Source: Escherichia phage ETEP102
DNA length: 48,422 nt
Strand: one strand, 5' to 3'
Sequence record: OR979723.1
The notes under the pieces were generated by a model. The model was not told the origin of the DNA, searched no databases, and saw only the letters and a program-made list of their open reading frames with translations. The position numbers and the translations under genes are program-made. This document shows, one piece after another, positions 237-47,757 of this stretch. Positions within the stretch are counted from its first letter, which is position 1, and each line of letters starts with the position of its first letter.

Positions 237-254
237 TTAGCAAAAAAGTGCTAT
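237..254 (-). promoter_or_regulatory. ATAGCAC-N5-TGCTAA motif copy (minus orientation) upstream of gene at 169
   Basis: Minus strand reads AATAGCACTTTTTTGCTAATG, then about 23 nt to TATTAT, then leader CCATCGAAACGA, GGAG and ATG. Confidence 0.45.
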
Positions 255-267
255 TCGTTGGATTTAT

Positions 268-374
268 GGATTGTTGCAGATATTGCAATGATTCACTTCA
301 CTATTGCACATATAGCAATATTGCATCGTTTGCAATGATGTTTTAGATTGTTGCGAATTGAGCAATGATTCATT
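268..374. repeat. array of ATTGCA/TGCAAT palindromes and a 27-bp direct repeat (operator/iteron-like)
   Basis: GATTGTTGC(A/G)...CAATGATTCA at 268-296 and 346-374; inverted repeats TATTGC-N7-GCAATA (302-320) and ATTGCA-N5-TGCAAT (321-337). Confidence 0.5.
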
Positions 375-532
375 GATGGGGGGAATGATGGGGTGAAGTC
401 TGATCCCCTGATCGCCTGGTTGGAACTTTCCGCCACACGTTTTCCATCGCATACGCGTAATTGTGCGTAACGCATGTATAGGCCTTGTATGCTGTGTAAC
501 GATTTGGCCTAAGCATACGCGGCATACGCAGT

Positions 533-622
533 TTTACGCATTAGTTACAATAAAATATCTATATATAACAACCATTTATCTATATTATTATTATTATATA
601 TATCTATGTATACTGTGTAACG
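533..622 (+). repeat. AT-rich ~88-bp element, copy A (second copy at 28967-29056)
   Basis: TTTACGCATTAGTTACAATAAAATATCTATATATAACAACC...ATTATTATTATTATATATAT...CTGTGTAAC; about 85 percent identical to copy B, same orientation. Confidence 0.6.
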
Positions 623-890
623 GTTGTCTAAGTGTGGCATCTGTCAAATTTGATAATATCCCCCACTAATATATAAGAGAGCCATTCCGCCAGGATAATA
701 GGGCCATATGCAGACAATCACCTTTCAGTATGCGTTACACGATATACCGCCTACTTACACCAGTCGTAGCGAGGCCTCCAAGGCGGAAATGTTTCCCGAC
801 CTGTTTTTTACATGCGATTACGGTTGACTTACGCGTTAACTCCCATCATAATTGCCTCACTTAAACGCAACAATCAAATGAGGTAACGAG

Positions 891-1427
891 ATGGATAAGG
901 TAACATTGGGTGATGTGATTCGCGAGATGGTACGCCAGGCAATTAAGTCCGACAAGAAGCTGTGCGTAGTTCCGGTTCGCAAGATATTCAACCTGGTAAA
1001 TGGTCATGATTATCCAGATGAAATACTGGACGAGGTGACGGGGGAGTACATGACTCCCGGGCGTGAGATCGTAGGTCTTAAAAGTTCATACATCTATAAC
1101 ACCGCAGCAAGAATGCAGGAGCTTCGGGATATTGATATGCACGTCAAGCATCGCTTTATCTGGCTGGCGTCAGGAGAGGAAACTGTAGCACGCAAGGCGG
1201 ATGGCGACGGCGCTGATAAGAACCTGTTAATCCAGCTTGAACCCGGGGCACTTAAGCCAACCAAACGAAAGACTGCAGATGTTGAGAGAGAAGTGGCAGC
1301 TATTGAAAGGTTCAAGGCTCGTCTGCTCAAGATCACACCAAACGTCATCGACCTGAAAGGCGAGCAGAAAGAAGGCGCTCTCATTGCCCTGGCACGTTAC
1401 CATGAAATGATTAAGGATACTAACTAA
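891..1427 (+). CDS. hypothetical protein (178 aa)
   Basis: ORF with GAGG about 9 nt upstream of ATG; no recognisable motif. Confidence 0.5.
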   Translation: MDKVTLGDVIREMVRQAIKSDKKLCVVPVRKIFNLVNGHDYPDEILDEVTGEYMTPGREIVGLKSSYIYNTAARMQELRDIDMHVKHRFIWLASGEETVARKADGDGADKNLLIQLEPGALKPTKRKTADVEREVAAIERFKARLLKITPNVIDLKGEQKEGALIALARYHEMIKDTN

Positions 1428-1987
1428 TGTTTAATTTCGACGAAGATAAATTGACCGATGAAAAGGTGATGGAAGTCGCCAGGCAAGATAACCTGCCTCC
1501 ACTTCGTGTGGCAATCAATGCTAATGGATACCGTCAATAATTCAAGTTCTGGCCCAGCGCCGAAGAGATGCTGTGCGTCAAGTTGAGCTACAAATACGGC
1601 GTCGTAGTGAGCAGGATTCGCCGCCAGTGCTGCAACGGGAAGGGAGTGTCTGGCATTCGATCTCTATACGAGGCAATCCGAAAGGTCCAGCCATTCGTCG
1701 GGCGCGAAGGGATTATGCATGACCTGACAAATAACATCATCCCAGCACTACAGGAGGCGGGAATTGTTTGCCTCATTGGCGATAAGATTTATGTGCATCC
1801 GGCCCTGGTGGGAATGTATGAGCGAGACGTGTACAACTGGTGCAGTCAGTACCGATCTGATGCGCCACGCTCTCACTACGTTGAGCCGATTAAGCCGACA
1901 ACCATCCATGGCTATGATGCCGATGAGGTGGAGAAGGCCATCCAGTTCTACCGGAAAGCGAAATCTCTCCTGAATGGTGAATATTAA
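1427..1987 (+). pseudogene. internally deleted remnant paralog of the P-loop ATPase at 44067-45650, with in-frame TAA at 1538-1540
   Basis: 1427-1537 encodes MFNFDEDKLTDEKVMEVARQDNLPPLRVAINANGYRQ (matches N-terminus MFDFNEDKLSIDQVMAVAAADNLPPLRVAINANGYRQ); same frame continues after TAA into ORF 1568-1987 whose GKGVSGIRSLYEAIRKVQPF...IGDKIYVHP matches the ATPase C-terminus; central P-loop region absent. Confidence 0.5.
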
Positions 1988-2199
1988 TGATTATAAAATG
2001 TGTGTATGTAAGGCAAGCCAATCACCACAACCTTTCAGTTGTAAATGGTGGGATATACTCGGCAAAGCCAATCCCTCGCTTTAATGGCTCATACTACATC
2101 AAGGTTGATGGCAATGAGTACATAGTGAAGACGATAGGTGAAGCTCTTATGATAAAGAGCCTTGGTGTGATAATGGCTAAATTCGAAATCGTTCGTTAA
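1987..2199 (+). CDS. hypothetical protein (70 aa)
   Basis: ORF; start overlaps upstream stop (TAATG). Confidence 0.4.
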   Translation: MIIKCVYVRQANHHNLSVVNGGIYSAKPIPRFNGSYYIKVDGNEYIVKTIGEALMIKSLGVIMAKFEIVR

Positions 2200-2217
2200 T
2201 AGCACGAATTGCTAAAC
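2199..2217 (+). promoter_or_regulatory. ATAGCACGAATTGCTAAAC motif copy
   Basis: Palindromic core TAGCA-N5-TGCTA directly after stop codon; 22 nt from TTGCTA to TATGAT (2237-2242); gene ATG at 2273. Confidence 0.5.
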
Positions 2218-2272
2218 AACAAATCGGGTAGTCAGCTATGATTACCCTATCAAAAACGAAGAGGAAATGATT

Positions 2273-2479
2273 ATGGAAACTGTACGCATTGACGATGTTC
2301 ACTTTGACCAAGCAGAGGTCAGCGTTCTGCTCAATCGGACTGGAGTAGTCAAGGCCGTAGTCTCCATTGACTTCGATACTGACGATCAGGGCGTTACCAT
2401 GATGCACTACACACCAGAACAAGCACGCAAGCTGGCGGCAGCGCTTATCCTGGCAGCAGAAGAGGCAGAAAATCAATGA
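2273..2479 (+). CDS. small protein, tandem paralog A (68 aa)
   Basis: ATG 2273 with AGAGGA 7 nt upstream (track start 2267); C-terminal YTPEQARKLAAALILAAEEAE shared with next gene. Confidence 0.5.
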   Translation: METVRIDDVHFDQAEVSVLLNRTGVVKAVVSIDFDTDDQGVTMMHYTPEQARKLAAALILAAEEAENQ

Positions 2480-2887: not shown

Positions 2888-3174
2888 AGAAACTAATTTT
2901 ACTGGCAGCACTTGCTCTGGCTGGATGTGATTTCGGAAGCACCCGTGTAGATTCAGAGGCTCGGCAGAAGATGCCAGTGAATGTCAACGATCGCGTCCAG
3001 GTTGTGAAGATTCAGGAGTTCAGTGATGAACTGGCATACGAGAACGTCAGAGCTATATACGTCATCACCGATAAGGACACTGGTCAGGAATATATCGGCT
3101 TAAGCGGTGTCGGGATCGTGGAAGTTGGTCGCCATGGTTGCGGCAAGGGATGCTCCAGAGAAGATGAACGATAG
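2884..3174 (+). CDS. putative lipoprotein (96 aa)
   Basis: N-terminus MKKLILLAALALAGC: signal peptide plus lipobox LAGC. Confidence 0.55.
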   Translation: MKKLILLAALALAGCDFGSTRVDSEARQKMPVNVNDRVQVVKIQEFSDELAYENVRAIYVITDKDTGQEYIGLSGVGIVEVGRHGCGKGCSREDER

Positions 3175-3189
3175 CACTTTTGTTAAAAC
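3171..3189 (+). promoter_or_regulatory. ATAGCACTTTTGTTAAAAC motif copy
   Basis: Overlaps TAG stop of upstream gene; 22 nt to TATAGT (3208-3213) inside hairpin GGAGAC/GTCTCC; ATG at 3255. Confidence 0.5.
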
Positions 3190-3254
3190 TTGCTCGGAGA
3201 CATTAGCTATAGTGTCTCCTGTCAAGTGAACACAAACCAACTGAGGAATCACAT

Positions 3255-3494: not shown

Positions 3495-4061
3495 GTGCAC
3501 GAAGCATGTGAGCAATTACTCAAGGATTTGCCTAAGTACAATGGCGATCCGTGTCACAGCACTGTCGATGCATTCGTTAGTGAAATGGCAAAAGCTCCGG
3601 ATGATGGCGTGAAGTGTTATTACCTTGTCGCAGATGAATTGACGAAGAACGGCAAGTTCACTTTCGGTAGCAATTTCGGTGAAGGCAAGGCGCTCACCAT
3701 GTCAACCGCGAAAATGGAACCACGCATCGGCGGTTACGGGTATGGCAATCGTCACGTATGGGCGGTTGGTGAATGTGAATCAGCACGCGATCGCAAGGTG
3801 GCAGTTTGCTACCATGTTAATAACGGCAGTGCGTTTATCAATGGTTGCGAGTACGCGTATGAAATTGATGAATGCGAACCAGGTTGCGAGCCTCGCCTTA
3901 TCCATATCGCACAAGATGCATTCATCTCTGATTTAAAAGGCGATTACCGATGGAAAGCAAAGAGAATTGGTAAGGTTATGAATGCCAAGGCAACGCTAGG
4001 TGACGCATACGCAATAGTAAATCCTGATTGCGGCGTAGTGGCTAAGTTCTATATCAAATAG
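3495..4061 (+). CDS. Cys-rich hypothetical protein (188 aa)
   Basis: ORF in track; first codon is GTG (in-frame TAG three codons upstream), an internal ATG start is possible; many Cys/Gly residues. Confidence 0.45.
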   Translation: MHEACEQLLKDLPKYNGDPCHSTVDAFVSEMAKAPDDGVKCYYLVADELTKNGKFTFGSNFGEGKALTMSTAKMEPRIGGYGYGNRHVWAVGECESARDRKVAVCYHVNNGSAFINGCEYAYEIDECEPGCEPRLIHIAQDAFISDLKGDYRWKAKRIGKVMNAKATLGDAYAIVNPDCGVVAKFYIK

Positions 4062-4076
4062 CACCTTTTGTTAAAA
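4058..4076 (+). promoter_or_regulatory. ATAGCACCTTTTGTTAAAA motif copy with extended -10
   Basis: Overlaps TAG stop; about 24 nt to TGGTATAAT (4095-4103); ATG at 4135. Confidence 0.5.
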
Positions 4077-4134
4077 GGGGTGGTTCATCCTGACTGGTAT
4101 AATCCCCACATCAACCACACGAAAGGATAGCAAC

Positions 4135-5562: not shown

Positions 5563-5580
5563 ATAGCACGAATTGCTAAG
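5563..5580 (+). promoter_or_regulatory. ATAGCACGAATTGCTAAG motif copy
   Basis: Immediately after TAA stop; 22 nt to TATAGT (5601-5606); ATG at 5636. Confidence 0.5.
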
Positions 5581-5600
5581 CCCGCTCCGGCGGGTTTTGT
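5581..5600 (+). terminator. hairpin plus T-run (terminator-like, embedded in promoter spacer)
   Basis: CCCGC-TCCG-GCGGG followed by TTTTGTT. Confidence 0.45.
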
Positions 5601-5635
5601 TATAGTTAGTTCACACCAAACGAGAGGAAACAAAG

Positions 5636-5958: not shown

Positions 5959-5979
5959 ATAGCACTTTTTGTTAAAAAC
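5959..5979 (+). promoter_or_regulatory. ATAGCACTTTTTGTTAAAAAC motif copy
   Basis: 22 nt to TATAGT (5997-6002) inside hairpin GGGGTA/TACCCC; leader CCATCGAAAC; ATG at 6033. Confidence 0.5.
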
Positions 5980-6032
5980 AATTCACGGGGTAGCGGTATA
6001 GTTACCCCATCGAAACTAACGAGGAAGCAGAA

Positions 6033-6978: not shown

Positions 6979-7053
6979 GCTCCGCTAGCTCAATTGGATA
7001 GCAGCAACGACCTTCTAAGTCGTATGTTACTGGTTCGAATCCAGTGCAGAGCG
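6979..7053 (+). tRNA. tRNA-Arg (anticodon TCT), encoded CCA follows at 7054-7056
   Basis: Hand-folded cloverleaf: acceptor 6979-6985/7046-7052 (one C-A mismatch), D-loop with GG, anticodon stem 7007-7011/7019-7023, loop CTTCTAA, T-loop TTCGAAT. Confidence 0.75.
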
Positions 7054-7060
7054 CCAATTT

Positions 7061-24164: not shown

Positions 24165-24199
24165 GAATCTTCTATAAATCGCACGAAAGGCTAAACATC

Positions 24200-28807: not shown

Positions 28808-28873
28808 TTTGTATTCCTCATTAAGTTGTTTCGTTTCGATGGAGTAACTATACACGCAACGAGCGATCGAGTC

Positions 28874-28893
28874 TTTAGCTATTCGTGCTATTG
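28874..28893 (-). promoter_or_regulatory. ATAGCACGAATAGCTAAA motif copy (minus orientation)
   Basis: Minus strand: CAATAGCACGAATAGCTAAAG, about 23 nt, TATAGT, leader CCATCGAAACGA, then lipoprotein ATG 28807. Confidence 0.45.
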
Positions 28894-29056: not shown

Positions 29057-29322
29057 TACTTCTATAGAGTGTTCCGCTTATAAATTTCTAATATGTACAT
29101 TTATACAGTGTTTAGTCACACGCACACCAATGCACCATCTGTTGAAAATGATATACACGATATACAAGCTATTTACATTGAGCTATGGCTGGTCCTGATA
29201 GCCTTTTTATGTAACTAACACCAATGTATACATCGAATTACAGCTATATACGTGTAACCACTTGACTAATGCGACTAAGCGAGTATAGTTAGCCACATCA
29301 ACAACAAGTGAGGATTAAAGAG

Positions 29323-30363: not shown

Positions 30364-30378
30364 CACTTTTTGCTAAAC
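30361..30378 (+). promoter_or_regulatory. TAGCACTTTTTGCTAAAC motif copy
   Basis: Overlaps TAG stop; 21 nt to TGATATAAT (30395-30402) in hairpin CGGTGATT/AATCACCG; ATG 30440. Confidence 0.5.
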
Positions 30379-30439
30379 ACGAGCGCGGTGATTTGATATA
30401 ATCACCGTAAATCAAACGAAGTAAACAAAGGTATATATA

Positions 30440-33536: not shown

Positions 33537-33559
33537 AATAATCAACTCCTATATTGTTG

Positions 33560-33579
33560 TTTAGCACGAATTGCTAAAG
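33560..33579. promoter_or_regulatory. TAGCACGAATTGCTAAAG motif copy (orientation ambiguous)
   Basis: Perfect palindromic core between primase gene terminator and tail fiber start. Confidence 0.4.
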
Positions 33580-33603
33580 TGCAGTATAGCATTGCTTTAG
33601 GCA

Positions 33604-33628
33604 TAAAAAAACCTCCCGAAGGAGGTTA
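33604..33628 (-). terminator. rho-independent terminator for primase gene
   Basis: Minus strand: ACCTCC-TTCG-GGAGGT then TTTTTTT; hairpin overlaps stop codon. Confidence 0.6.
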
Positions 33629-34549
33629 GTTTAGCAAGTCGTTTGCTTTGTAAACTTTCTTTCTAATGCCTGTTTTAAATGACTTGCCATCATTTGGGAT
33701 GACTACACCAACAGACCTGTCATCAGCAATAGAGAGTATATCAAAATCATGATCACGACAAGCAATCCTGAAGCTGCGGGACTTGTCTCGGTGAATAACC
33801 ATTTCCATGTTATAACAGGAGAAAGCAACAAACACCTCACGCCCCCCAGTAGCAATATGAACACGCACGCCATCAATAAAATTATCAACAACATAAGTGT
33901 AACCATCAACCTGCCAAGAACCAATGACAGCAACAGAATCACGAGTGTAATCACCAGCAAGGAATTTAACATTTGAATCTCCATCAATAAACATTAAGTT
34001 GCAGAACTCATTACCAATCCCATCCTCGTAAACCATCGAGCAAGGTACGGCATGAATCATTGATCCATCCTTAGCTATACCAACATCGAATCCATCATCA
34101 AGATAAATACCCTCATATGTTGTGAGTGGGCTTGATTCAACTCTTACAGTCCGCTCCATGACTTCAAGAACTTTTTCATGATCTACTTGAGCGCCCATTT
34201 TGTAATGCTGAGTCCTTGATGCTTGCTTGTTTGCCTTATTAACCACTTCTACAGGGATAAGGTTTAACCACTCACCGAGAACATCGATACATTCACTAAA
34301 TGACTCACCTCGCAGCTTCTGGACCCAAATAATACCATCTCCTGAACCGCATTGGTTGCAGATAATTCCACCATCACCATTTTCGCTAACTTTGTTGGTC
34401 CATCTCGCGCGATCGCTTCCTCCGCAATAAATGCATGGCTGGTGTTTTTTGGTCTGGAAAAACTTAGGATCTGCGCCACATATATTGATAAGCGCCTTAT
34501 CCCATAGGCCGCGCATTCTTGGTAAAACCTCTCTCTTATCGTAGTGCAT
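33626..34549 (-). CDS. putative DNA primase (zinc-ribbon plus TOPRIM-like)
   Basis: CIYCGG...CNQCGSGDG zinc-binding pair near N-terminus, Asp/Gly-rich acidic core; next to helicase. Confidence 0.5.
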   Translation of the reverse strand: MHYDKREVLPRMRGLWDKALINICGADPKFFQTKKHQPCIYCGGSDRARWTNKVSENGDGGIICNQCGSGDGIIWVQKLRGESFSECIDVLGEWLNLIPVEVVNKANKQASRTQHYKMGAQVDHEKVLEVMERTVRVESSPLTTYEGIYLDDGFDVGIAKDGSMIHAVPCSMVYEDGIGNEFCNLMFIDGDSNVKFLAGDYTRDSVAVIGSWQVDGYTYVVDNFIDGVRVHIATGGREVFVAFSCYNMEMVIHRDKSRSFRIACRDHDFDILSIADDRSVGVVIPNDGKSFKTGIRKKVYKANDLLN

Positions 34550-34606: not shown

Positions 34607-35080
34607 TTACTCTTTAGCTTTTCGTGCTGCTTCGTTAGCGGCCTTAATCTTGCGCCACGATCGACATTCTGGCTTCGTAGCTAATTCAGCATCAGTAACA
34701 ACGCGCAGCATGTGACGTTTTTTGCACCGGAGTGTCAGCGGCTTTCCGTTGCCATCGAATTGCAGATCCGGTCGGCAAAAAGTCGCGCGAAAACCCTCTC
34801 CAGTTCGCTTGTATCGGTTGTGCGCCAGTTGAGCGCCTCGGGCCGACATCATGCCCCTCTTGAACCATTCCTCAACCGCCTGGCGACTAACCTTCAGTTG
34901 CTTTGCGATATTGGCCTTCGTTCCGTAGAAGTCGAGAACCATCTCCAGTCGCGCCAGAAGCCCGGCCTTTACTTCATCTTTTAAAACGTAGTAACCTGAA
35001 GGTCGTTTTCGTTGCTTTTTGTCTTCAGTTCGGACTGTTCCGTTGTTGCCGTTAATGGTTCGCTTGTCGACTGCATTCAT
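34607..35080 (-). CDS. HTH DNA-binding regulator
   Basis: Helix-turn-helix ANIAKQLKVSRQAVEEWFKRG; basic tails; divergent from helicase gene. Confidence 0.5.
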   Translation of the reverse strand: MNAVDKRTINGNNGTVRTEDKKQRKRPSGYYVLKDEVKAGLLARLEMVLDFYGTKANIAKQLKVSRQAVEEWFKRGMMSARGAQLAHNRYKRTGEGFRATFCRPDLQFDGNGKPLTLRCKKRHMLRVVTDAELATKPECRSWRKIKAANEAARKAKE

Positions 35081-35092
35081 CTCATCACCTCA

Positions 35093-35111
35093 ATAGCACT
35101 TTTTGTTAAAC
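35093..35111 (+). promoter_or_regulatory. ATAGCACTTTTTGTTAAAC motif copy
   Basis: In divergent intergenic region; 21 nt to TATTAT (35130-35135); helicase ATG 35173. Confidence 0.45.
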
Positions 35112-35172
35112 ATTGGTTTCGATGGCTGTTATTATAACGTCAATCGAACGAACATGAAAGGCATTTAATACT

Positions 35173-37275
35173 ATGGCTATGCGCATTAAATCCATCAAAA
35201 AACAGATAGAGGAACTCGGTCCTCAGAAGATAAAAGAAATTCAGGATAAGTTTACCTTTGGTGACATGGTTCCGTATGAGTACCAGTGCGTGATGTATGA
35301 TGAGATCGGCAAGCGCATTGCTCGCTATAAGCATCCATTCATTGTTAAGGCTTCCGTATCTGCTGGTAAAACAATTGGCTTTGCCATGATCGCGTCTCGA
35401 GTTAAAGAGATGGGACTTTCAATGATGATACTTGCGCGCCAGGGCGACATCGTCGCTCAGGATAGCGAGGAGATCTCAAACTTCGGCGTTCCAAACTCTG
35501 TTTACTGTGCTGGCCTGAATACAAAATCCGCATACTTCCCTATAGTTGTAGGATCGGAAGGTTCAGTGGCGAACGGTCTATTCAAGGCTCTGGGTGACTT
35601 TACTCCAATGGTGCTGGGTATTGATGAATGTCACCAGGTAGACTGGGAAGACCTTGCTGCAGCCATCGGCAATGAAGAAACGATTGAGATGATGCTAACT
35701 GAAAAGGATGAGCGAGTATTCATTGATTACCCTAAAAATCGCGATGGTTATGTCAATGGTTATCTTAATGGCGTAGAGGTTGGCGCCCAGGTAATGGATA
35801 AGCAATTGCTAATCAGCCGGAAGACTGGCGAGCCTGTGTTGGGAACAAAGCGAAGCCAATACACGATCATAATCACTGAGCTAATGAGGCGCTGCAAAGA
35901 GAAGAATGGCAAGGAATTAAGGATATTCGGGATGACTGGTTCTGAGTTCAGAGGAACAGCTCCAATCGTAGTTGACAACCCAAAGCTACCTGGATTCTGG
36001 CGTGAGCAGGTGACTAATATTGACACAAATTACCTTATTGAGTTCGGATCTGTGGTTCCGACTGTTTTTGGTAGTGTCGGTGATGCTGGTTATGATCTTG
36101 ATGAGTTCAAGGCATCAAGTCAGGACGGCACGGCTGACTTCAGCCAGAAAGATATGAAGGCGATGGAAAAGAAAATCCATGACAACGCCAGCATGACCAA
36201 GCGAATCATGGAAATGGTTGTTGAGGAGGCAAAGAAGCGAAACGGGGTTCTTATTACATGCTCAGGGCAGCGCCACTGCAAAGAGGCAGCGAGCTATCTG
36301 CCACCTGACGCCACCTATGAGATCATCACCGAGAAGACAAACACCAAAAAGCGACAAGCAATACTGGAAGCGGCTAACCGTGGTGAAATTAAATACATTT
36401 TCCAGGTTATAGCGCTAACTACTGGAGTTAACGTTCCGTTTTGGGATTTCTCAGTCATCCTGCGTAAGATTGGTTCTCTTACACTACTGATCCAGCTTCT
36501 CGGTCGCGGAATGCGATTGCTTAAACCGTGGCAAAAAGCAATGGGTATGGTTAAGGAAGATCACCTTGTGTGGGATTTCGCGGGTTGCATGGACGAGTTA
36601 GGTCAGTTATACTTTGACCCCATCCTTGAGGAATCACAGTATCAGCGCCGCTTTGACGGTAAGAAAGAACCGAAGAAATGTGAGTTGTGCGGAACTGAGA
36701 ACAGTTTTTACGCTCGCCGTTGCATTCACAGAGACGAAAACGGCAATCGTTGTGAGTATTTCTGGAAGTCTCGCGTATGTGAAGACCAGATTGATGATCG
36801 CACTGGCGAAGTGCTCGCTAAGGGTTGCGGAACTGAGAATGACGTAGTTGCTAGAATATGCCGCTGCTGTGACGTGAGCTTGAAAGACCCCAATGACAAT
36901 CTGACTGGTAAGGCTTACACAAAAAACGACTGGTGCACAGTTAATAGCTTTGAAGTGACGCTGACGAGAAATCAGACTGGTATTCTTTATCGTTACGACC
37001 TTACCGACTCGATGGGGGTTAACTTCATTGCTTATGAAAAATTTTTCCCTCAATCAACGGCGCAGGTATGCCACACGATATGGAAACAAAAAGGTGTATT
37101 GCCTCATGTGCATGACAGCAAGATCGCAAAGTTAATGGCAGCTTACAGAAGTGCGAAAATGATTTTAAACAACGCTCACCACATAGCACATCCGGTGCGG
37201 GTAACACACCGAAAAAATGCAAAAGGTGATGATATTATTTCACGTAAAGATTTCGGATTGGATGGTAACTTATGA
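35173..37275 (+). CDS. SF2 DEAD/DEAH-box helicase with C-terminal Cys-rich domain
   Basis: Walker A SAGKT, Walker B GIDECHQ, C-terminal CELCG...CIHRD...CRCC cysteine clusters. Confidence 0.75.
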   Translation: MAMRIKSIKKQIEELGPQKIKEIQDKFTFGDMVPYEYQCVMYDEIGKRIARYKHPFIVKASVSAGKTIGFAMIASRVKEMGLSMMILARQGDIVAQDSEEISNFGVPNSVYCAGLNTKSAYFPIVVGSEGSVANGLFKALGDFTPMVLGIDECHQVDWEDLAAAIGNEETIEMMLTEKDERVFIDYPKNRDGYVNGYLNGVEVGAQVMDKQLLISRKTGEPVLGTKRSQYTIIITELMRRCKEKNGKELRIFGMTGSEFRGTAPIVVDNPKLPGFWREQVTNIDTNYLIEFGSVVPTVFGSVGDAGYDLDEFKASSQDGTADFSQKDMKAMEKKIHDNASMTKRIMEMVVEEAKKRNGVLITCSGQRHCKEAASYLPPDATYEIITEKTNTKKRQAILEAANRGEIKYIFQVIALTTGVNVPFWDFSVILRKIGSLTLLIQLLGRGMRLLKPWQKAMGMVKEDHLVWDFAGCMDELGQLYFDPILEESQYQRRFDGKKEPKKCELCGTENSFYARRCIHRDENGNRCEYFWKSRVCEDQIDDRTGEVLAKGCGTENDVVARICRCCDVSLKDPNDNLTGKAYTKNDWCTVNSFEVTLTRNQTGILYRYDLTDSMGVNFIAYEKFFPQSTAQVCHTIWKQKGVLPHVHDSKIAKLMAAYRSAKMILNNAHHIAHPVRVTHRKNAKGDDIISRKDFGLDGNL

Positions 37276-37769
37276 TTATAAACTTTGTCGAATACAAAGA
37301 TGGTGGGCTCTACTGGACTAAACCGTCAGGGCCAAGGGCTAGAGTTAGCATTGGATCAAGGGTAGGTCACGTAAATCGTGAAGGCTACAGGGTATTCAAG
37401 TTCGAAGGCGCTCACCTAAAGGAGCATAGGGTGATATGGTATATACATAATGGTGAAATACCAGAAGGGATGGAGGTTGATCACATAAATCACGAAAGGG
37501 ATGATAATAGAATTTCAAACTTAAGACTAGTTAGCAGATCCGACAACATGAAAAATACATCAATAAGAAAGTCGAATAGTAGCGGATTTACTGGTGTTAG
37601 TTGGTGCTCAACCAGTAAAAAGTGGAAGGCTCAGATACAAGTAAACGGAAAGAAAATATCGTTAGGTTACTTTAGTGATATTGATTTAGCTATAAGTGCA
37701 AGAACCGAGGCGAATATTAAATATAACTTCCACGACAATCATGGTGGCAAAAATGGCTATAAAAGATAA
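37272..37769 (+). CDS. HNH homing endonuclease
   Basis: EVDHINHERDDNRISNLR core and TGVSW...WKAQIQVNGK tail, paralogous to 8236-8748; ATGA overlap with helicase stop. Confidence 0.8.
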   Translation: MIINFVEYKDGGLYWTKPSGPRARVSIGSRVGHVNREGYRVFKFEGAHLKEHRVIWYIHNGEIPEGMEVDHINHERDDNRISNLRLVSRSDNMKNTSIRKSNSSGFTGVSWCSTSKKWKAQIQVNGKKISLGYFSDIDLAISARTEANIKYNFHDNHGGKNGYKR

Positions 37770-38184
37770 AGGTGACTACCTGGAGTATTACACTCCAGAC
37801 AAAACGGATACGTGGACTGAGAACAAGCACCAGGTCGACTGCGTAACCTGGACAAAGGTTAGGCATGGTGAGTTATTGTTCTGGCACGCTGTTAATGAGA
37901 ATAAAAAACACATTCATACCGCTATAAAGGATGCTCAGAGCGGGTTATTGAAGGGTGTTAGTGACTTTGTATTCCTTCTCGGTCCGTTCGGTAAATACCC
38001 GTTTGGGGCCATAGAATTGAAGAGGGTAAATAAGAGCGGAAAAGGCAAAGCGTCACCAGTCAGCAAGGAGCAGAAAGATTTCCTTCGTCTCGTTCGTGAG
38101 CGTGGCGGTTTCGCGGCGGTGGCGTACGGCCAGGAAGAATATAAGAAAGCGGTTCATGATATGCTGAATAGCACGAATTGCTAA
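37753..38184 (+). CDS. VRR-NUC-type PD-(D/E)xK nuclease
   Basis: GVSDFVFLL ... GAIELKR arrangement; ATG 37753 (track start 37696). Confidence 0.5.
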   Translation: MAIKDKGDYLEYYTPDKTDTWTENKHQVDCVTWTKVRHGELLFWHAVNENKKHIHTAIKDAQSGLLKGVSDFVFLLGPFGKYPFGAIELKRVNKSGKGKASPVSKEQKDFLRLVRERGGFAAVAYGQEEYKKAVHDMLNSTNC

Positions 38185-38186
38185 AG
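38168..38186 (+). promoter_or_regulatory. ATAGCACGAATTGCTAAAG motif copy
   Basis: Encodes last residues NSTNC of upstream gene; 22 nt to TGTATTAT (38204-38211); leader CATCGAAACGAAG; ATG 38251. Confidence 0.5.
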
Positions 38187-38250
38187 ACGAATCGGTGAGG
38201 TGGTGTATTATCACTTCATCGAAACGAAGTGACCAACTAAGGGAATCAAA

Positions 38251-39388: not shown

Positions 39389-39619
39389 ATGGAAAAGTTG
39401 CAATTTGATTTAACTGAGCAGGCTCAGTTCCTTTTGTTTCGCGGTCTTGTTTGCACGGCTCTTACAAAGGCTGGGTTCAAGGGTGATGCTTGGGTATTCT
39501 CAAATCTTGACATGTCATTTGAAGAGGTCCAAGGCACTCCATTTGAATCATGGTCAAGATCAATAGCAAAAGATCTCGCAGACTATAAGCGCGATTGCCC
39601 TGAGGATTTTCACGAATAG
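39389..39619 (+). CDS. hypothetical protein (76 aa)
   Basis: ATG 39389 with GGAG upstream. Confidence 0.4.
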   Translation: MEKLQFDLTEQAQFLLFRGLVCTALTKAGFKGDAWVFSNLDMSFEEVQGTPFESWSRSIAKDLADYKRDCPEDFHE

Positions 39620-39634
39620 CACGAATTTCTAAAC
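39616..39634 (+). promoter_or_regulatory. ATAGCACGAATTTCTAAAC motif copy
   Basis: Overlaps TAG stop; 22 nt to TGGTATACT (39651-39659) in hairpin ATACCAGC/GCTGGTAT; ATG 39690. Confidence 0.5.
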
Positions 39635-39689
39635 ATACCAGCCGCTGTGCTGGTATACTTCTTTCACGCCAACGAAACGAGGAATCAAC

Positions 39690-40484: not shown

Positions 40485-41627
40485 ATGGCTATTCAGAAAA
40501 TTAGTGACGAACAATTCATTGCCGAGCGCGAAGCTGGTAAAACTCTACGTCAAATAGCTCAAGAATACGGTATGAATATTCGAACTGTAGAGCAGCGTTC
40601 AAGTCGCCTCGCGAAGCGTGGAGAGTTTCACGGAAACAAGCACGTAAGCGTACATGTTCCAGAAGGGTTTCAGGTTAAAGGTACATCGACAATGATTCGA
40701 GCCGATGGCTCAGAGGTTGTGCGGTGGGTAAAGACAGATCAGGACAAGGAGAAGTTAGCCGCCATGATGGATGCCGCGATTGAAGCATTCTGTGAAGAAA
40801 TCCCACGCGCAGATCCTCAGCCTATTCTTGGCGAGCCTAACTATGATGAGAATCTCCTGGCACTGTATCCAGTGTTCGATCTACACATCGGCGCAATGGC
40901 ACACAAGCATGAGTGCGGTGAAAACTACAGCACCGACATCTCTGAGAAAGTCCTCAAGAACTTCTTTGATTACTCGGTTGGCGTAGCTCCTAAAGCAAAG
41001 AAAGCCGTATTGCTAATCGGTGGTGACTTCCTTCACTCTGATGGCCTGGACGCTGTAACGCCCGCAAGCGGTCACGTACTGGATCAGGATAGTCGATACG
41101 CTAAGCTCGTGCATGTTGCAATTCGTTCCGTCCGCCGCGCTGTGGCAAAAATGCTGGATAAACACGAGGATGTCGAAATTCAGATCATTGAGGGCAATCA
41201 TGATCAGGCGGGAATGATTTGGTTGCGTGCTGCCATGGCTGCATACTTCGAAGATGAATCGCGCGTAAAAGTTGACGTATCCCCAATGATTCTCCACCGA
41301 ACCAAGTGGGGTAAGACGCTACTCGGATACACTCATGGTCACACCATGAAGAAGGCTGACACTCGACTGGCGGCGATGGCAACAGATTTCCGTGAGGAGT
41401 TCGGGACCAGTAAATATATCTATACGCATAGCGGCCATTGGCACCATCAGACGATCACGGAAGGAACTTTGGGAATTGATGAGGTTCACGGTCAACTAGG
41501 AGCAAAAGACGCATATGCGGCTCGCGGCGGATGGCGCTCTTATCGACAGGCAGCTGTGATCTTGTATTCAAAAGAGTTCGGTGAGGTTGGTCGATTCGTT
41601 TACCGTCCAGAGATGAGTGATATTTGA
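40485..41627 (+). CDS. calcineurin-like metallophosphoesterase with N-terminal HTH domain
   Basis: Phosphoesterase motifs DLHIG, GGDFLHSD, EGNHDQ, GHTH, GHWHH; N-terminal HTH-like GKTLRQIAQEYGMNIRTVEQ. Confidence 0.6.
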   Translation: MAIQKISDEQFIAEREAGKTLRQIAQEYGMNIRTVEQRSSRLAKRGEFHGNKHVSVHVPEGFQVKGTSTMIRADGSEVVRWVKTDQDKEKLAAMMDAAIEAFCEEIPRADPQPILGEPNYDENLLALYPVFDLHIGAMAHKHECGENYSTDISEKVLKNFFDYSVGVAPKAKKAVLLIGGDFLHSDGLDAVTPASGHVLDQDSRYAKLVHVAIRSVRRAVAKMLDKHEDVEIQIIEGNHDQAGMIWLRAAMAAYFEDESRVKVDVSPMILHRTKWGKTLLGYTHGHTMKKADTRLAAMATDFREEFGTSKYIYTHSGHWHHQTITEGTLGIDEVHGQLGAKDAYAARGGWRSYRQAAVILYSKEFGEVGRFVYRPEMSDI

Positions 41628-41645
41628 TAGCACTTTTTGCCTAAC
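41627..41645 (+). promoter_or_regulatory. ATAGCACTTTTTGCCTAAC motif copy
   Basis: Follows TGA stop; 22 nt to TATATT (41665-41670) in hairpin TAGCGCC/GGCGCTA; ATG 41698. Confidence 0.45.
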
Positions 41646-41697
41646 ATGTAGCGCCGATTGGCGCTATATTTACATCTCACTATCAGAGGATTCAATC

Positions 41698-43609: not shown

Positions 43610-44134
43610 TTAGCGCCCGTGGTTATGGTGGAATTTAAGCCTTGCCCTAGCATCAATCACGGCCTGGCAGGCATCATCAAACAGGTAAAAAGTTCCTAGT
43701 GCAATTCTTTTACCGCTCAGGGATATTCTGGCCTTGAACTTCCCGTTCTTTTCAATCGTAACGCCAGGGAATCCGCTGGTGTTATTCTTATATACACTTT
43801 TGTTTTTTGAGTTATCTTGAGCCGATACAAGCCTGAGATTTACTCGTCTATTATCCATTCTATTATGATTTATGTGGTCAATCTGCATCCCCTTCGGTAT
43901 TTCACCCTCTCAAATATTCCATATTACAACGTGATTTGTCAGCCTCTTACCACCATAATCGAAACGCCTATAGCCACCTCTTGACTTATTGCCGCAATAG
44001 TTACCTTCTATCGCGGTTGGGTTTATTGTCCTAAGCCAGACTAAATCAATACCATCATAACCAATGTCAGGATAGCAATCGTGGGTTAACATATACCTTG
44101 TCTCCAATTGTGCAGGTGTAATATTTCTCATCAA
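43610..44134 (-). pseudogene. HNH homing endonuclease interrupted by in-frame TGA (43910-43912)
   Basis: Track ORFs 43910-44134 and 43610-43888 are in the same frame; joined reading ...HVVIWNI-stop-EGEIPKGMQIDHINHNRMDNRRVNLR matches intact paralog ...HRVIWYIHNGEIPEGMEVDHINHERDDNRISNLR. Confidence 0.6.
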
Positions 44135-46074: not shown

Positions 46075-46137
46075 TTTGATTTCCTTTATGTGTTTCGTTT
46101 CGATGAGATGAATATACAGGAAAAGCCCAGAATGGCT

Positions 46138-46158
46138 TTAGCAATTAGTGCTATTTTA
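46138..46158 (-). promoter_or_regulatory. ATAGCACTAATTGCTAAA motif copy (minus orientation)
   Basis: Minus strand: follows TAA of methyltransferase gene; 22 nt to TATATT; leader CATCGAAACGAAAC; ATG 46074. Confidence 0.45.
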
Positions 46159-46830
46159 GCTGTTGGCGAGGTATACGGCACGGGCGAACCCGCGCGGGGT
46201 TAGAGAGCGAAACTGCTTGGTCTTTGCTGACTTACCTCCAAGGAAGCGCCAACCCCAAAAGAAACCAATGTTGATGGGGCCAGGCTTCTTAACTGGCTCA
46301 ATAAATCCGTTACCATGCCAGATGCAGGTCTTTTTTGTATAACCGTCGTATTTCGGCATTTTATCGTGATAAGGCATATCGCCAGCCTTCATGAGTCCGC
46401 CGTACTCGTGAGGGTTAAAGTAAAAATCAGGCTTACGCCATAGCGTTGACAGTTTGCCTACCGGATTCTCAACCATCCATGGAGCGTCAAAGTGATTTCC
46501 AACCTCCTCCACCAGCTTTGCATTAGCCAAGGCGTAAGCAAGCTCATCTTCGCTGCGGTCGTGCTGAGATCCTGACTGAGAAAACAGCGTGCAGTCAGGG
46601 AATCCGATAACCATTTGTGCCGGAGGTATTCCGAACAATTCGCACTTCGTTATGAAATCCTTATCAATCCACATATTGACATAGTGAATGTTCTCATGCT
46701 GCATCTTGACTTGATACTCGCCATGATTACCGGAGTCAGCATTAAAGCAGTAAACGGTGTGCCCGTTCTCAGCCCATGGGAGTCCAGCGATACCGGAACC
46801 GTCAAACATGCAGTAAATTACCTTTTTCAT
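46156..46830 (-). CDS. DNA cytosine-5 methyltransferase-like protein
   Basis: Motif I-like MFDGSGIAG, motif IV-like GFPDCTLFS (PC dipeptide), motif VI-like MVENPVG; short (224 aa). Confidence 0.45.
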   Translation of the reverse strand: MKKVIYCMFDGSGIAGLPWAENGHTVYCFNADSGNHGEYQVKMQHENIHYVNMWIDKDFITKCELFGIPPAQMVIGFPDCTLFSQSGSQHDRSEDELAYALANAKLVEEVGNHFDAPWMVENPVGKLSTLWRKPDFYFNPHEYGGLMKAGDMPYHDKMPKYDGYTKKTCIWHGNGFIEPVKKPGPINIGFFWGWRFLGGKSAKTKQFRSLTPRGFARAVYLANS

Positions 46831-46985
46831 TTCTTCATTGCCTTCTTGATTGCTTTCTGTGTGATTTCGAAACTGCTTTGCAGGTCTTCAACTTGCGCGG
46901 ATGTGATCCATGGATACCATCCTTTACCCGACATCTTCGCTATCGTGTCATTATCGTAATAGTTCAGATCTGAAGGTTTAAGCAT
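46827..46985 (-). CDS. small hypothetical protein (52 aa)
   Basis: ATG with GAGGTG 5 nt upstream; stop overlaps methyltransferase ATG (ATGA). Confidence 0.35.
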   Translation of the reverse strand: MLKPSDLNYYDNDTIAKMSGKGWYPWITSAQVEDLQSSFEITQKAIKKAMKK

Positions 46986-47226
46986 CTTTCACCTCATCAA
47001 AAGTTGCAATTCCAGGAATAAACATTCCAACCTTCCAGCCAGCGATGGCAACCCATCCAGAATCGTGCTTGTGCGGTCGCTCAGCGCCATTAATCAACCA
47101 CTCGTTCGGGATTGTCTTGCCGTTAATGATTAGCGGCTCAGCGTCGTATACAGAGCCTTTTACAAATGGCGTTAAAACCTTTTTGTCGGTGCTGGTGATT
47201 ACGTTCGTGCAGCGAATTTTCATCAT
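46978..47226 (-). CDS. hypothetical protein (82 aa)
   Basis: ORF in minus-strand early operon. Confidence 0.4.
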   Translation of the reverse strand: MMKIRCTNVITSTDKKVLTPFVKGSVYDAEPLIINGKTIPNEWLINGAERPHKHDSGWVAIAGWKVGMFIPGIATFDEVKDA

Positions 47227-47232
47227 GAGTCC

Positions 47233-47448
47233 TTAAAACGGTATGCCGTCATCAAATTTTAATCGATAGTCGAAGTCATCCCCGATTCCATCGACTGACT
47301 GGTTGCTCTCGCTTTCCAGATCCATATCCATAATTCCGAGAGCGTCATCAAGTTCTATACATCCATAAGCTACCTTGAGCGCCCACTCTTCATTAAGTCC
47401 GGCTTCAAGTGCCGCGCGGTGGCGGCTCCAGAAATTATCTTGATTCAC
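47233..47448 (-). CDS. small acidic protein with SSB C-terminal tail mimic (KFDDGIPF)
   Basis: 71 aa, GTG start with GGAG 6 nt upstream; acidic C-terminal half ending FDDGIPF, the same motif that ends the phage SSB (FDDDIPF). Confidence 0.5.
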   Translation of the reverse strand: MNQDNFWSRHRAALEAGLNEEWALKVAYGCIELDDALGIMDMDLESESNQSVDGIGDDFDYRLKFDDGIPF

Positions 47449-47450
47449 CG

Positions 47451-47675
47451 TTAGCTCCAGGAGTTGATATAAAGTGAGTTGTCGTTTAACAGATTGATCA
47501 TCTCGGCACGGGTGAGGCTACGGATTATTTGGCCTGGATGAGTGCCAAAAACGTAGCGATCGAACTCACGGCGCGTAATGGTGATCTGACTAACGCCTGC
47601 TGAGCGGTCAAGTTTGATGATTGCGCGGCCTTTGGCTTCGATGTGTGCTACTACGTTCTGAACTTTAACTGACAT
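47451..47675 (-). CDS. hypothetical protein (74 aa)
   Basis: ORF with GAGGAAG RBS downstream of motif/leader module. Confidence 0.4.
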   Translation of the reverse strand: MSVKVQNVVAHIEAKGRAIIKLDRSAGVSQITITRREFDRYVFGTHPGQIIRSLTRAEMINLLNDNSLYINSWS

Positions 47676-47738
47676 TTTTACTTCCTCTTGTGTACTTCGT
47701 TTCGATGAAATGATTATGCCTCAATCCGTGAGGCTTAG

Positions 47739-47757
47739 TTTAGCAATTCGTGCTATT
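47739..47757 (-). promoter_or_regulatory. ATAGCACGAATTGCTAAAC motif copy (minus orientation)
   Basis: Minus strand: follows TAA stop of gene 47757-48188; hairpin GCCTCA/TGAGGC; about 22 nt to CATAAT; leader TTCATCGAAACGAAG; ATG 47675. Confidence 0.5.

Follow-up and report, generated by a model that had tools for sequence, protein, structure and literature searches.

[quoted passage not shown] The reading draws on the identity, orientation and spacing of the box, the absent -35 hexamer, enrichment, family-wide conservation, portability and the absence of a phage MarA homologue. What is new here is the identification of the repeat as a marbox, the repeat itself having been published already (PMC11447400).

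Sequence and abundance of the box

All 15 copies listed in the original prediction are present in the window (the whole 48,422-nt stretch analysed), on the strands given there and at coordinates that are exact or off by 1-3 nt. The strict pattern put forward for them, ATAGCAC-N4/5-TGCTAAAC, is matched exactly by two copies, while the others deviate, with TGTTAAA, TTCTAAA, AGCTAAA or GCCTAAC as second half or with a 1-nt indel (3171, 237); in T1-like phage the motif is written ATAGCAC-nnW-TTGYTAAAY (19-20 bp). A scan with a 25-nt matrix trained on relatives only puts 14 sites in the window at 8 bits or more, where 0.28 would be expected (no more than 2 in any of 50 simulations), so that the copies stand far above chance. 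Across Drexlerviridae the motif recurs in T1, Rtp, CJ19, TLS and Klebsiella phage Shelby.

The motif fits the asymmetric mar/sox/rob box GCAHWWWWTGYYAAA, and the phage form GCAC(GAAT/TTTT/TAAT)TG(C/T)TAAA satisfies all three published definitions, namely GCAHWWWWTGYYAAA (PMC6900184), gcannwwntgnnaaa (PMC12052159) and CACG/T-7N-AAA (PMC8811837). Scored with an independent weight matrix derived from 87 Salmonella MarA/SoxS/Rob/RamA ChIP-seq sites (training median 11.5 bits, maximum 18.5), 11 of the 15 copies reach 13.4-18.6 bits, those at 5566, 3174 and 41630 come to about 10-12, and the copy with the insertion, near 250, to only 2.4; the matrix consensus GCACTAATTGCTAAA is identical, letter for letter, to the module 14 box (46151, minus strand). 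Matches of at least 14 bits number 13 in the window (1.4 expected), 21 in T1, 18 in CJ19 and 16 each in Rtp and Shelby, and lambda has one, within a gene. Complete modules are also found in T4-like Lw1, RB16, RB43 and Miller and in 178-kb Klebsiella/Enterobacter phages, where their persistence speaks for portability, not function. Five Drexlerviridae genomes yielded no MarA/SoxS homologue (best E about 0.3), and the phage ORFs tested no AraC-type domain. Binding and activation by MarA, SoxS or Rob, like the acting paralogue and the timing, are what we infer from these letters.

Host sites vary far more than phage boxes, in which the ATA before GCAC and the TTG are near-invariant, and this counts against the marbox reading; it could reflect a different, stricter reader or homogenisation through recombination. 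T1-like phages also thrive on unstressed laboratory hosts, in which MarA and SoxS are low and Rob, the constitutive, abundant paralogue, is mostly sequestered, and these points likewise weigh against it. We know of no report of rob, marA or soxS mutants affecting T1; single knock-outs would be masked by three redundant paralogues.

Promoter geometry and the individual copies

As originally described, the TTGCTA-like hexamer lies 21-24 nt (mode 22) from a -10-like hexamer. From box start to -10 start the distance is 37-40 (mode 38) in the window, and among unique modules from relatives it is 38 in 214 of 337 and within one of this in 266. In 14 of 15 copies the box, co-directional with its gene, spans about -50 to -31 and leaves 18 ± 1 bp between its end and a good sigma-70 -10 hexamer; it therefore fills the place of the absent -35 hexamer, the match to which reaches only about 2.4-3.3 of 6 at the most favourable of three spacings. 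The -10 hexamers come close to consensus, with TGn in 3/9 to 10/17 modules per genome. A distinct promoter class with non-canonical -35 geometry is supported, as is the reading of the motif as a protein-binding site. The hairpins described around the -10 are confirmed and show enrichment over shuffled sequence (MFE -10.4 kcal/mol, shuffles -4.7). The hexamer-to-ATG distance, predicted as 27-41 nt, holds at its upper bound, the measured range being slightly wider (24-41 nt). In order, the cassette consists of upstream stop codon, box, sense-strand hairpin, -10, CA start, leader CATCGAAACGA, Shine-Dalgarno and ATG; in many copies box and stop codon overlap as described (TAA-TAG, or TAG within ATAGCAC), and between copies the spacer and hairpin sequences vary while box, -10 and start are retained.

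Two boxless promoters in the window are canonical sigma-70 promoters. One (29262-29289, plus strand; TTGACT-16-TATAGT) serves the recE-like gene and has the -10 and start core of the modules (TATAGT-TAGCCA-CATCAACAAC); the other (824-852, plus strand; TTGACT-17-CATAAT) precedes the first rightward genes (891-2199) and sits upstream of the first box. The RB43 orthologue of a boxed Lw1 promoter shares the -10/leader core but has a canonical TTGAC(T/C) -35 at 16-17 bp instead. Since the recE and RB43 promoters join the module core to a canonical -35, the box substitutes for that hexamer.

Module 1 (170-254, minus strand) has its box at 254-235 (ATAGCACTTTTTTGCTAATG), -10 TATTAT at 214-209, a predicted start near 202 (CATCGAAACGAG) and ATG 169; its box contains a 1-nt T insertion, while the CJ19 orthologue is of standard length. 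On the plus strand, module 2 (2199-2266) combines a box at 2199-2218 (17.4 bits), a hairpin, -10 TATGAT at 2237-2242, a predicted start near 2249 and ATG 2267. In module 3 (3171-3254, plus) the box at 3171-3190, ATAGCACTTTTGTTAAAACT, preserves the CACT-7N-AAA spacing and is followed by TATAGT (3208-3213), a predicted start near 3221 and ATG 3255. Module 4 (4058-4134, plus; box 4058-4077, 15.5 bits; TGgTATAAT, 4098-4103; predicted start about 4110) leads to ATG 4135 of a short ORF preceding the polynucleotide kinase gene. A terminator-like hairpin (5578-5597) and then a T run mark module 5 (5563-5635, plus; box 5563-5582; TGtTATAGT, 5601-5606; predicted start about 5613; ATG 5636), and the hairpin GGGGTA/TACCCC encloses the -10 of module 6 (5959-6032, plus; box 5959-5978, 16.3 bits; TATAGT, 5997-6002; predicted start about 6009, CATCGAAAC; ATG 6033).

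Module 7 (28808-28891, minus; box 28891-28872, GCACGAATAGCTAAA, 15.9 bits; TATAGT, 28852-28847; predicted start about 28840) precedes a phage lipoprotein gene in a Cor-like region, and the Pfam Phage_lipoprotein match to residues 43-121 of the longer ORF agrees with its start at ATG 28807. Module 8 (30360-30439, plus; box 30360-30379, 17.7 bits; hairpin; TGaTATAAT, 30397-30402; predicted start about 30409) serves an Erf-like annealing protein gene (ATG 30440). Module 10 (35093-35172, plus; box 35093-35112, 16.3 bits; TGtTATTAT, 35130-35135; predicted start about 35142; helicase ATG 35173) abuts with its box the ribosome-binding site of the divergent Cro-like HTH gene, whose own TATAAT (35136-35131, minus) overlaps the module -10. 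A 14-bp hairpin of -17.5 kcal/mol belongs to module 11 (38168-38250, plus; box 38168-38187, 17.4 bits; TATTAT, 38206-38211; predicted start about 38218, CATCGAAACGAA; ATG 38251), and a hairpin at 39635-39656 to module 12 (39616-39689, plus; box 39616-39635, 13.4 bits; TGgTATACT, 39654-39659; predicted start about 39666; ATG 39690). Boxes also stand ahead of lysis-region genes: module 13 (41627-41697, plus; box 41627-41646, ATAGCACTTTTTGCCTAACA, 9.8 bits; hairpin; TATATT, 41665-41670) leads to ATG 41698 of a gp14-like ORF upstream of holin and endolysin. Module 14 (46075-46154, minus; box 46154-46135, GCACTAATTGCTAAA, 18.6 bits) has a terminator-like hairpin, TATATT at 46116-46111, a predicted start near 46104 and ATG 46074, and module 15 (47676-47756, minus; box 47756-47737, 17.4 bits) a hairpin, CATAAT at 47718-47713, a predicted start near 47706 (CATCGAAACGAA) and ATG 47675.

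The -10 hexamers predicted downstream of every copy are real except at the orphan copy (33561-33580, plus; TTTAGCACGAATTGCTAAAG), a fully palindromic box (17.4 bits on the plus strand, 12.2 on the minus) with neither a -10 hexamer nor a gene downstream on the plus strand. It is flanked by the primase terminator and the tail-fibre ATG (33545, minus) and follows closely downstream of a minus-strand TGcTATACT; its position is also occupied in T1, Rtp and CJ19. A further box-like site (34630-34611, minus; GCAGCACGAAAAGCTAAAGA, 14.8 bits) falls in the last codons of the HTH gene; next come a terminator (34602-34575) and the primase ATG, a geometry that is not class II; TLS DR10 and T57 have the same arrangement. 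The structural block, said to lack copies and to use TGnTATAAT promoters, does use promoters of the terminator plus TGnTATAAT type and is largely free of boxes, the exception being one degenerate copy (24178-24197, plus; AAATCGCACGAAAGGCTAAAC, 15.1 bits) that overlaps the ribosome-binding site of a J-like tail gene (ATG 24200). This copy lacks an in-register -10 hexamer and is probably a relic; the equivalent region in TLS holds DR8. In Rtp, boxes do precede some genes within the structural block.

Alternative readings

The original prediction saw in the palindromic core a dimeric protein site and named the products of 34607-35080 and 40485-41627 as candidate HTH binders. The dimeric reading is probably wrong: the motif keeps a single orientation (14 of 15 co-directional), its two halves differ in how well they are conserved, and it suits an asymmetric box that a monomer contacts through two HTH motifs. 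The product of 40485-41627 is a DNA repair exonuclease (phrog_704, E 8e-153). We think it unlikely that the motif is read by a phage protein, either the Cro-like HTH protein (34607-35080, T1 gp23 family), the only obvious HTH protein of the phage, or an unrecognised early protein, which would switch delayed-early promoters on in class II fashion or silence them as a 'stoperator' repressor, the marbox likeness then being convergence or mimicry. The HTH gene is family-wide (824 homologue records), a box abuts its ribosome-binding site, which suggests autoregulation, and boxes are more invariant in phage than in host; moreover, in TLS the HTH promoter is among only three canonical sigma-70 promoters, fitting a first-expressed regulator, and copy 33561, a perfect palindrome with 7-bp arms, occupies +1 to +20 of the putative tail-fibre promoter as an operator might. 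Yet a single Cro-type HTH protein acts as a dimer on symmetric sites, whereas the motif has unequal halves and one orientation, and a joint match of sequence, orientation and spacing to an asymmetric monomer site is unlikely to be coincidence. Against the HTH protein, too, T4-like phages hold complete modules, and the 30 homologue records listed from across the ranking of 824 are all small and Drexlerviridae-sized (29 of 44-52 kb and one 3-kb partial), with no T4-like genome among them.

It is quite improbable that host RNA polymerase alone suffices, served by a strong -10, a frequent G at -14 and an A/T-rich box region acting as a UP-element-like or displaced -35, with the marbox likeness incidental or stress-only. 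The near-consensus -10 and the TGn frequencies given above would suit this, as would the growth of T1 in unstressed cells, the very strong promoter activity of RB49/phi1 PeSL cassettes in uninfected E. coli and the activator-independent activity of the class II targets lpxC, lpxL and rfaY (PMC12052159). However, the -35 match is poor, TTGCTA at 22 bp from the -10 is beyond the usable sigma-70 range, recognition of A/T tracts by alpha-CTD does not predict the invariant G and C of GCAC, and so constant a distance (38 bp) from a 20-bp sequence-specific element speaks for a bound factor.

That the conservation is mainly a by-product of recombination, with gene conversion holding PeSL-like mobile 'promoter plus stem-loop' junctions similar and the junctions used as crossover points for gene shuffling, not as a specific protein site, is very improbable: such shuffling via PeSLs is documented, one module precedes different genes in Lw1 and a 178-kb Klebsiella phage, modules lie beside HNH endonuclease and moron-like genes in Rtp and T1, and box and -35 hexamer are swapped between Lw1 and RB43, but this accounts for spread and not for a consensus marbox in class II register, the retention of box, -10 and start despite varied spacers and hairpins points to selection on function over plain homogenisation, and recombination is compatible with the marbox reading, not exclusive of it.

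Relation to known systems and proposed mechanism

Host class II promoters (micF, fumC, lpxC P2, lpxL P1, rfaY P1) share with the modules a 15-20 bp asymmetric box (GCAC, 7 nt, YAAA), placed forward, overlapping and replacing the -35 and centred at about -41, with canonical -10 and start; such promoters have no -35 hexamer (PMC10268841). In the geometry comparison, made with micF plus fumC, whose -10 is ambiguous, E. coli micF (soxbox centre -41.5) has 38 bp from box start to -10 start, equal to the phage mode, and fumC has the upstream gene's terminator, a forward box directly after it and AATAAT at 37; nfo, when scanned, showed no box reaching 8 bits. Unlike these promoters, the modules belong to a virulent phage and number 13-21 per 48 kb, and whereas host sites are degenerate, the phage copies are all near consensus, in a cassette with hairpin and shared leader. 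CRP at gal P1 (dimeric class II, about -41.5/-42) likewise has a site overlapping a poor or absent -35, but CRP-type sites are symmetric and dimer-bound, the phage box asymmetric and orientation-dependent.

The PeSL (promoter-early stem-loop) of T4-type RB49 and phi1 (Arbiol et al. 2010, PMC2839356; Comeau et al. 2014, PMC4122927) is a similar intergenic composite of upstream stop in an A/T-rich stretch, promoter, Shine-Dalgarno and ATG, with a stem-loop that either separates the -35 and -10 positions or covers the -10, in many copies amid small non-essential genes and with signs of cassette shuffling. PeSLs differ in having consensus sigma-70 -35 and -10 where the modules have an activator box for the -35; the modules belong to siphoviruses, and the terminator and promoter activities shown for PeSLs are putative in the modules. 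The 21-nt direct repeat aaATAGCACnnnTTGnTAAAA of TLS (Supplementary Table S1 of the 2024 reannotation, PMC11447400), recorded there for T1, Rtp and Rogue1 too, is the same element in sequence, A/T/G middle-triplet subtypes, orientation with transcription and position about 76 nt before start codons. That paper leaves its function open (stoperator, enhancer site or UP element) and, in the passages covered, makes no mention of -10 register, hairpin, conserved leader or marbox.

On the marbox reading, the box would take the -35 place in the class II layout of host micF and fumC, and an activator at about -41 would touch alpha-CTD and sigma region 4 and recruit host RNA polymerase. Transcription would begin at the conserved CA about 7 nt past the hexamer, giving an mRNA with the shared leader AUCGAAACGA, Shine-Dalgarno and gene. 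The hairpin between box and start lies upstream of the start and would therefore be present only in RNA reading through from the preceding gene, whose transcript it most likely attenuates, terminates or stabilises. Each intergenic region may thus be a self-contained cassette that stops, insulates and restarts transcription. If this is true, much of the phage's non-structural transcription may hang on the host stress-response system.

Sequence of the repeated box

The repeated motif of the window probably represents class II mar/sox/rob-box promoters, in which the binding site of the host activators MarA, SoxS, Rob and RamA (the marbox) lies at the -35 position, set within cassettes resembling the promoter-early stem-loops (PeSLs) of the T4-type phages RB49 and phi1. 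The original prediction had listed fifteen copies of the box, and all 15 are present on the strands claimed. The (A)TAGCAC on the left hardly varies between copies; after it come GAAT, TTTT or TAAT and then a somewhat variable TG(C/T)TAAA. In a fixed register 12 of the 15 copies fit the 15-mer of the marbox, copy 3171 retains the CACT-7N-AAA spacing, and copies 237 and 41627 each carry a 1-nt insertion.

Published definitions of the marbox are GCAHWWWWTGYYAAA (PMC6900184), gcannwwntgnnaaa (PMC12052159) and CACG/T-7N-AAA (PMC8811837), and the phage sequence GCAC(GAAT/TTTT/TAAT)TG(C/T)TAAA agrees with all three. To avoid judgement by eye, a matrix was built from 87 MarA/SoxS/Rob/RamA ChIP-seq sites of Salmonella (PMC10268841, Table 1); its consensus, GCACTAATTGCTAAA, matches the copy at 46151(-) base for base. 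Scored with this matrix, 11 of the 15 lie at 13.4-18.6 bits (training sites: median 11.5, maximum 18.5), while the lower-scoring copies at 5566, 3174 and 41630 reach about 10-12 bits and the insertion copy near 250 only 2.4 bits. Across the window 13 matches score at least 14 bits compared with 1.4 expected (maximum of 4 in 40 simulations), and a matrix derived solely from relatives finds 14 sites compared with 0.28 by chance. Scans of T1, CJ19, Rtp and Klebsiella phage Shelby confirmed the motif, with 21, 18, 16 and 16 marbox-matrix matches at the 14-bit threshold, respectively; lambda contains a single match, within cI. A comparison of information content between the phage motif and the marbox matrix gave a rho of 0.5 (p 0.06). 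The phage boxes are far less degenerate than host boxes, which may reflect selection for affinity, recombination among copies or another reader.

Judged by sequence, the motif is a position-for-position fit to the asymmetric marbox. An Lrp site (consensus YAGHAWATTWTDCTR) would account for 11-13 of 15 positions and would leave the invariant C after GCA and the TAAA(A/C) tail unexplained, whereas the marbox fits every position. A palindromic operator for a dimeric HTH protein, as first proposed, is probably wrong: the arms (TAGCA/TGCTA) span just 5 bp and are unequally conserved, with an invariant left half and a variable right half (TGCTA, TGTTA, TTCTA, AGCTA), the flanks are asymmetric (ATA vs AAAC), and strand use is strictly one-way.

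The phage carrying these boxes is a virulent T1-like siphophage of the Drexlerviridae (48.4 kb), the closest records being CJ19 (genus Nouzillyvirus), ESCO41 and TH21, with ~86-91% identity across 50-76% of the sequence. The gene order of T1 and Rtp is kept, with small early genes in both arms, a rightward structural block at ~7.6-27.6 kb, and then a replication, recombination and lysis region. A tRNA-Arg gene (anticodon TCT, 6979-7056) separates the rightward early genes from the structural block. At 37272-37769 lies a gene for an HNH endonuclease that also has an AP2-like domain, and an ORF at 43610-43888(-), possibly truncated, matches the HNH_3 domain in its C-terminal half only; in Rtp and T1 several genes of this kind have a box module of their own upstream.

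The repeat itself has already been described, and its identity as a marbox is the new reading. The 2024 reannotation of phage TLS reports a 21-nt direct repeat, aaATAGCACnnnTTGnTAAAA, in 21 copies (18 intergenic), oriented with transcription ~76 nt upstream of start codons, falling into A, T and G subtypes and found also in T1, Rtp and Rogue1 (PMC11447400). The window motif shares with this Drexlerviridae repeat (TLS DR1-18) its sequence, intergenic place and orientation. The same study gives only three sigma-70-like intergenic promoters for TLS and offers a stoperator, an enhancer site or a UP element as options for the repeat (PMC11447400). No link between the marbox, MarA or SoxS and T1-like phages was found in the literature searched; mention elsewhere is possible.

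Promoter geometry and the associated hairpin

The modules follow a common register, with the box at offsets 0-19, a G at -14, TATAaT at offsets 38-43 and CA at offsets 49-50, followed by TCGAAACGA and completed by a Shine-Dalgarno sequence and the ATG. In 8 of the 14 window modules 38 bp separate the start of the box from that of the -10 (range 37-40), and among 337 unique modules from related phages a -10-like hexamer begins at offset 38 in 214 and at offsets 37-39 in 266. The 22-nt spacing from TTGCTA noted in the original prediction is therefore correct, and tightly constrained. All boxes but one (14/15) are co-directional with a gene beginning 68-85 nt past the box start, the exception being the orphan copy at 33561. 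The -10 consensus is TATAaT, and the predicted start is a conserved CA ~7 nt past the hexamer, which places the box centre at about -40.5. The -35 position reads TAAAAC or TAAACA, and the best -35 match over three spacings is 2.4-3.3 of 6.

These features parallel class II MarA/SoxS/Rob promoters, in which a forward box lies over the -35 position, near -41 (PMC12052159, PMC6900184, PMC10268841), a recognisable -35 hexamer is absent, and the -10 and start are canonical (PMC10268841). For micF the centre of the soxbox is at -41.5 (PMC9638938), and in the E. coli micF promoter the 20-mer ACAGCACTGAATGTCAAAAC begins 38 bp before the -10 TAGAAT, the commonest distance in the phage modules. The fumC promoter has a forward box after the fumA terminator, and AATAAT lies 37 bp from where that box starts; no box scoring 8 bits or more turned up in the nfo promoter. 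Box sequence, forward orientation, distance to the -10 and absence of a -35 are all shared between class II marbox promoters and the window modules.

In sequence terms the box takes the place of the -35 hexamer. The RB43 orthologue of a boxed Lw1 promoter keeps the -10 and leader, with TTGACC at 17 bp replacing the box, and the promoter of the recE-like exonuclease gene (29262-29289, TTGACT-16-TATAGT, without a box) has the discriminator and start style of the modules, TAGCCA-CATCAACAAC, with TTGACT in place of the box. This promoter and that ahead of the first rightward genes (824-852, TTGACT-17-CATAAT) are the only two strong canonical sigma-70 promoters of the window. By position and downstream gene the 824-852 and 29262-29289 promoters appear to match P01 and P51, two of the three promoters reported for TLS, and they are probably activator-independent entry points of transcription. 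Boxed promoters also keep a leader, CATCGAAACGA(A/G), at offsets -1 to +11 (e.g. 38217-38228, 46105-46094), a block that is present in T4-like phages as well and, in the looser form CATCAACAAC, in the canonical recE promoter. Start-site context, promoter escape and an mRNA 5' end signal are candidate roles for the leader. Searches that used just the -10 and leader as anchor were overwhelmed by matches arising by chance within coding sequence.

Other promoter elements account for the motif less well than the marbox. Sigma-54 (-24/-12) promoters, whose spacing is fixed, have the consensus TGGCAC-N5-TTGC and a GG at -24; in the motif, TAGCAC-N3-TTGC, this GG is AG and the spacer is short by 2 nt, and a sigma-70 -10 hexamer downstream in fixed register also opposes this assignment. 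A UP element could be seen in TTTT-N3-AAA, which is found in the T subtype only, lies ~8 bp further downstream than the UP position, and would leave the invariant GCAC unexplained. While TTGCTAAA looks like a T4 MotA box, it lies ~10 bp too far upstream for a MotA-box middle promoter. TAAACA, flagged by a promoter scan as a -35 at 17-18 bp, is without the critical TTG and reads mostly TAAAAC across the family. Lambda CII-type TTGC repeats have the wrong repeat spacing and the wrong position.

The hairpin described in the original prediction is real. Folding of the 37 nt 3' of the box, sequence by sequence, gave a mean of -10.4 kcal/mol compared with -4.7 in shuffled sequences and -2.6 in coding controls, and 81% of modules fold at or below -5 kcal/mol. 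With arms at roughly -30 to -16 and -9 to -1, the hairpin usually has the -10 within or beside its loop, and because it is positioned upstream of the predicted start it would be transcribed solely by read-through of the preceding gene. Folds are more stable in the sense than in the antisense strand (-10.7 vs -8.7 kcal/mol, p 5e-15), with composition-matched shuffles leaning oppositely, and one module presents a compensatory stem series: GGGGTA/TACCCC in Lw1 10294(-), GGGGTA/TATCCC with a G.T pair in RB43 784(-) and Miller, and GGGATA/TATCCC in a Klebsiella phage. Both the strand bias and the compensatory series suggest that a structure in the sense-strand RNA is under selection. Covariation in a fixed register gave weak signals because the stems occupy two or three registers, hence the folding of individual sequences. 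Since a T-rich tail follows only a minority of strong hairpins (26/165), the hairpins may attenuate or stabilise upstream transcripts, unlike classic terminators.

In its order of upstream stop codon, promoter, stem-loop (over the -10 or between it and the -35), Shine-Dalgarno and ATG, the window module resembles the PeSLs, which differ in carrying a consensus -35 where the window modules have a marbox, accompanied by a consensus-like -10. The PeSL stem-loop was shown to terminate transcription, and in uninfected E. coli the cassette proved a very strong promoter (PMC2839356, PMC4122927).

Candidate proteins acting at the box

The phage has one obvious DNA-binding protein, of 157 aa with a single P22-Cro-like HTH (34607-35080), which is not AraC-type. 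To our knowledge T1-type phages encode no RNA polymerase and no sigma factor. Homologues of the HTH protein occur in 824 phage records; the 30 listed, from best to weakest, are all Drexlerviridae-sized (29 records at 44-52 kb, plus a partial record of 3 kb), and no T4-like genome is among these 30 of the 824. Complete modules (box, hairpin, TATAGT, CATCGAAAC, Shine-Dalgarno, ATG) are found in the T4-like phages Lw1, RB16, RB43 and Miller and also in 178-kb Klebsiella and Enterobacter phages. The presence of modules in T4-like phages, with no T4-like genome among the 30 listed records with an HTH homologue, argues that the HTH protein is probably not the reader of the box. The original proposal of a promoter class with a protein site thus holds in outline, while its dimeric palindrome and phage-HTH candidates probably do not.

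Searches with MarA (query checked against PDB 1BL0) and SoxS against five Drexlerviridae genomes, by tblastn and phmmer, returned noise only, and Pfam scans found no AraC-type domain among 20 window ORFs. PDB sequence searches with the HTH protein and two immediate-early proteins gave nothing relevant. The simplest reading is that host MarA, SoxS, Rob or RamA would bind the boxes. T1-like phages grow in unstressed cells, so that if this model is right basal activity or Rob, the constitutively present paralogue, must suffice. Rob has the highest DNA affinity among the paralogues (PMC10268841).

Atypical copies, cassette exchange and implications

Two copies are not covered by the promoter model. 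The orphan at 33561, TTTAGCA-N5-TGCTAAA, is the only fully palindromic copy and lies at about +1 to +20 of a putative tail-fibre promoter, an extended -10 (TGcTATACT, minus strand, 33520-33660 region) upstream of the tail-fibre ATG (33545) and past the primase terminator. Its placement before the tail-fibre gene, conserved in T1, Rtp and CJ19, resembles that of an operator or a 5' stem-loop. The second, the degenerate box ATCGCACGAAAGGCTAAAC (24178-24197), overlaps the J-like tail gene's ribosome-binding site without a -10 in register; in TLS the repeat DR8 is located in the equivalent region. An additional box of 16.6 bits, GCACTTATAGCTAAA (37702-37683, minus), is intragenic and antisense, has no -10 in register and is probably a chance match.

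At 35093-35172 divergent -10s overlap, that of the helicase being TATTAT (+) and that of the Cro-like HTH gene TATAAT (-), with a CATCGAA(A)C start block on both strands, and the box in the HTH-gene leader is a possible point of cross-regulation. [quoted passage not shown] These could be antisense promoters or relics; the window has no clear counterpart of them.

T1-type modules also lie in the early dda-dexA hyperplastic region of Lw1 (10294(-), 10910(-)), RB43 (784(-)), Miller and the Klebsiella and Enterobacter phages. One and the same module is joined to differing downstream genes in T4-like Pseudotevenvirus and in the 178-kb Klebsiella and Enterobacter phages, which suggests exchange of the cassette between phage families.

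How transcription is organised in T1-type phages has been a puzzle since the T1 genome was sequenced, and the class II marbox reading makes the puzzle of the TLS repeat approachable at the bench with existing reagents. Should that reading not be true, a phage-specific site mimicking the marbox near-perfectly would need its own explanation. We tentatively propose, as a possibility held less firmly than the promoter assignment, that in Drexlerviridae most non-structural promoters are wired to MarA/SoxS/Rob/RamA, that phage gene expression would thereby respond to bile salts, oxidants, salicylate or antibiotics met by the host, that multidrug-resistant mar/sox/ram up-mutants would be better rather than worse hosts, that 13-21 consensus boxes per genome could titrate low-abundance activators off host defence genes, and that the box-hairpin-promoter cassette is mobile between siphoviruses and T4-like myoviruses. 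The prediction of better hosts is of note because the TLS receptor, TolC, is a product of the mar regulon. If true, the class II marbox reading would bear on phage-antibiotic combinations and on the choice of Drexlerviridae for therapy of mar/ram-derepressed Enterobacteriaceae, and would offer a source of compact, insulated promoter cassettes responsive to activator. It would also be a clear example of how a virulent phage draws its transcription factors from the stress and antibiotic-resistance regulon of its host.
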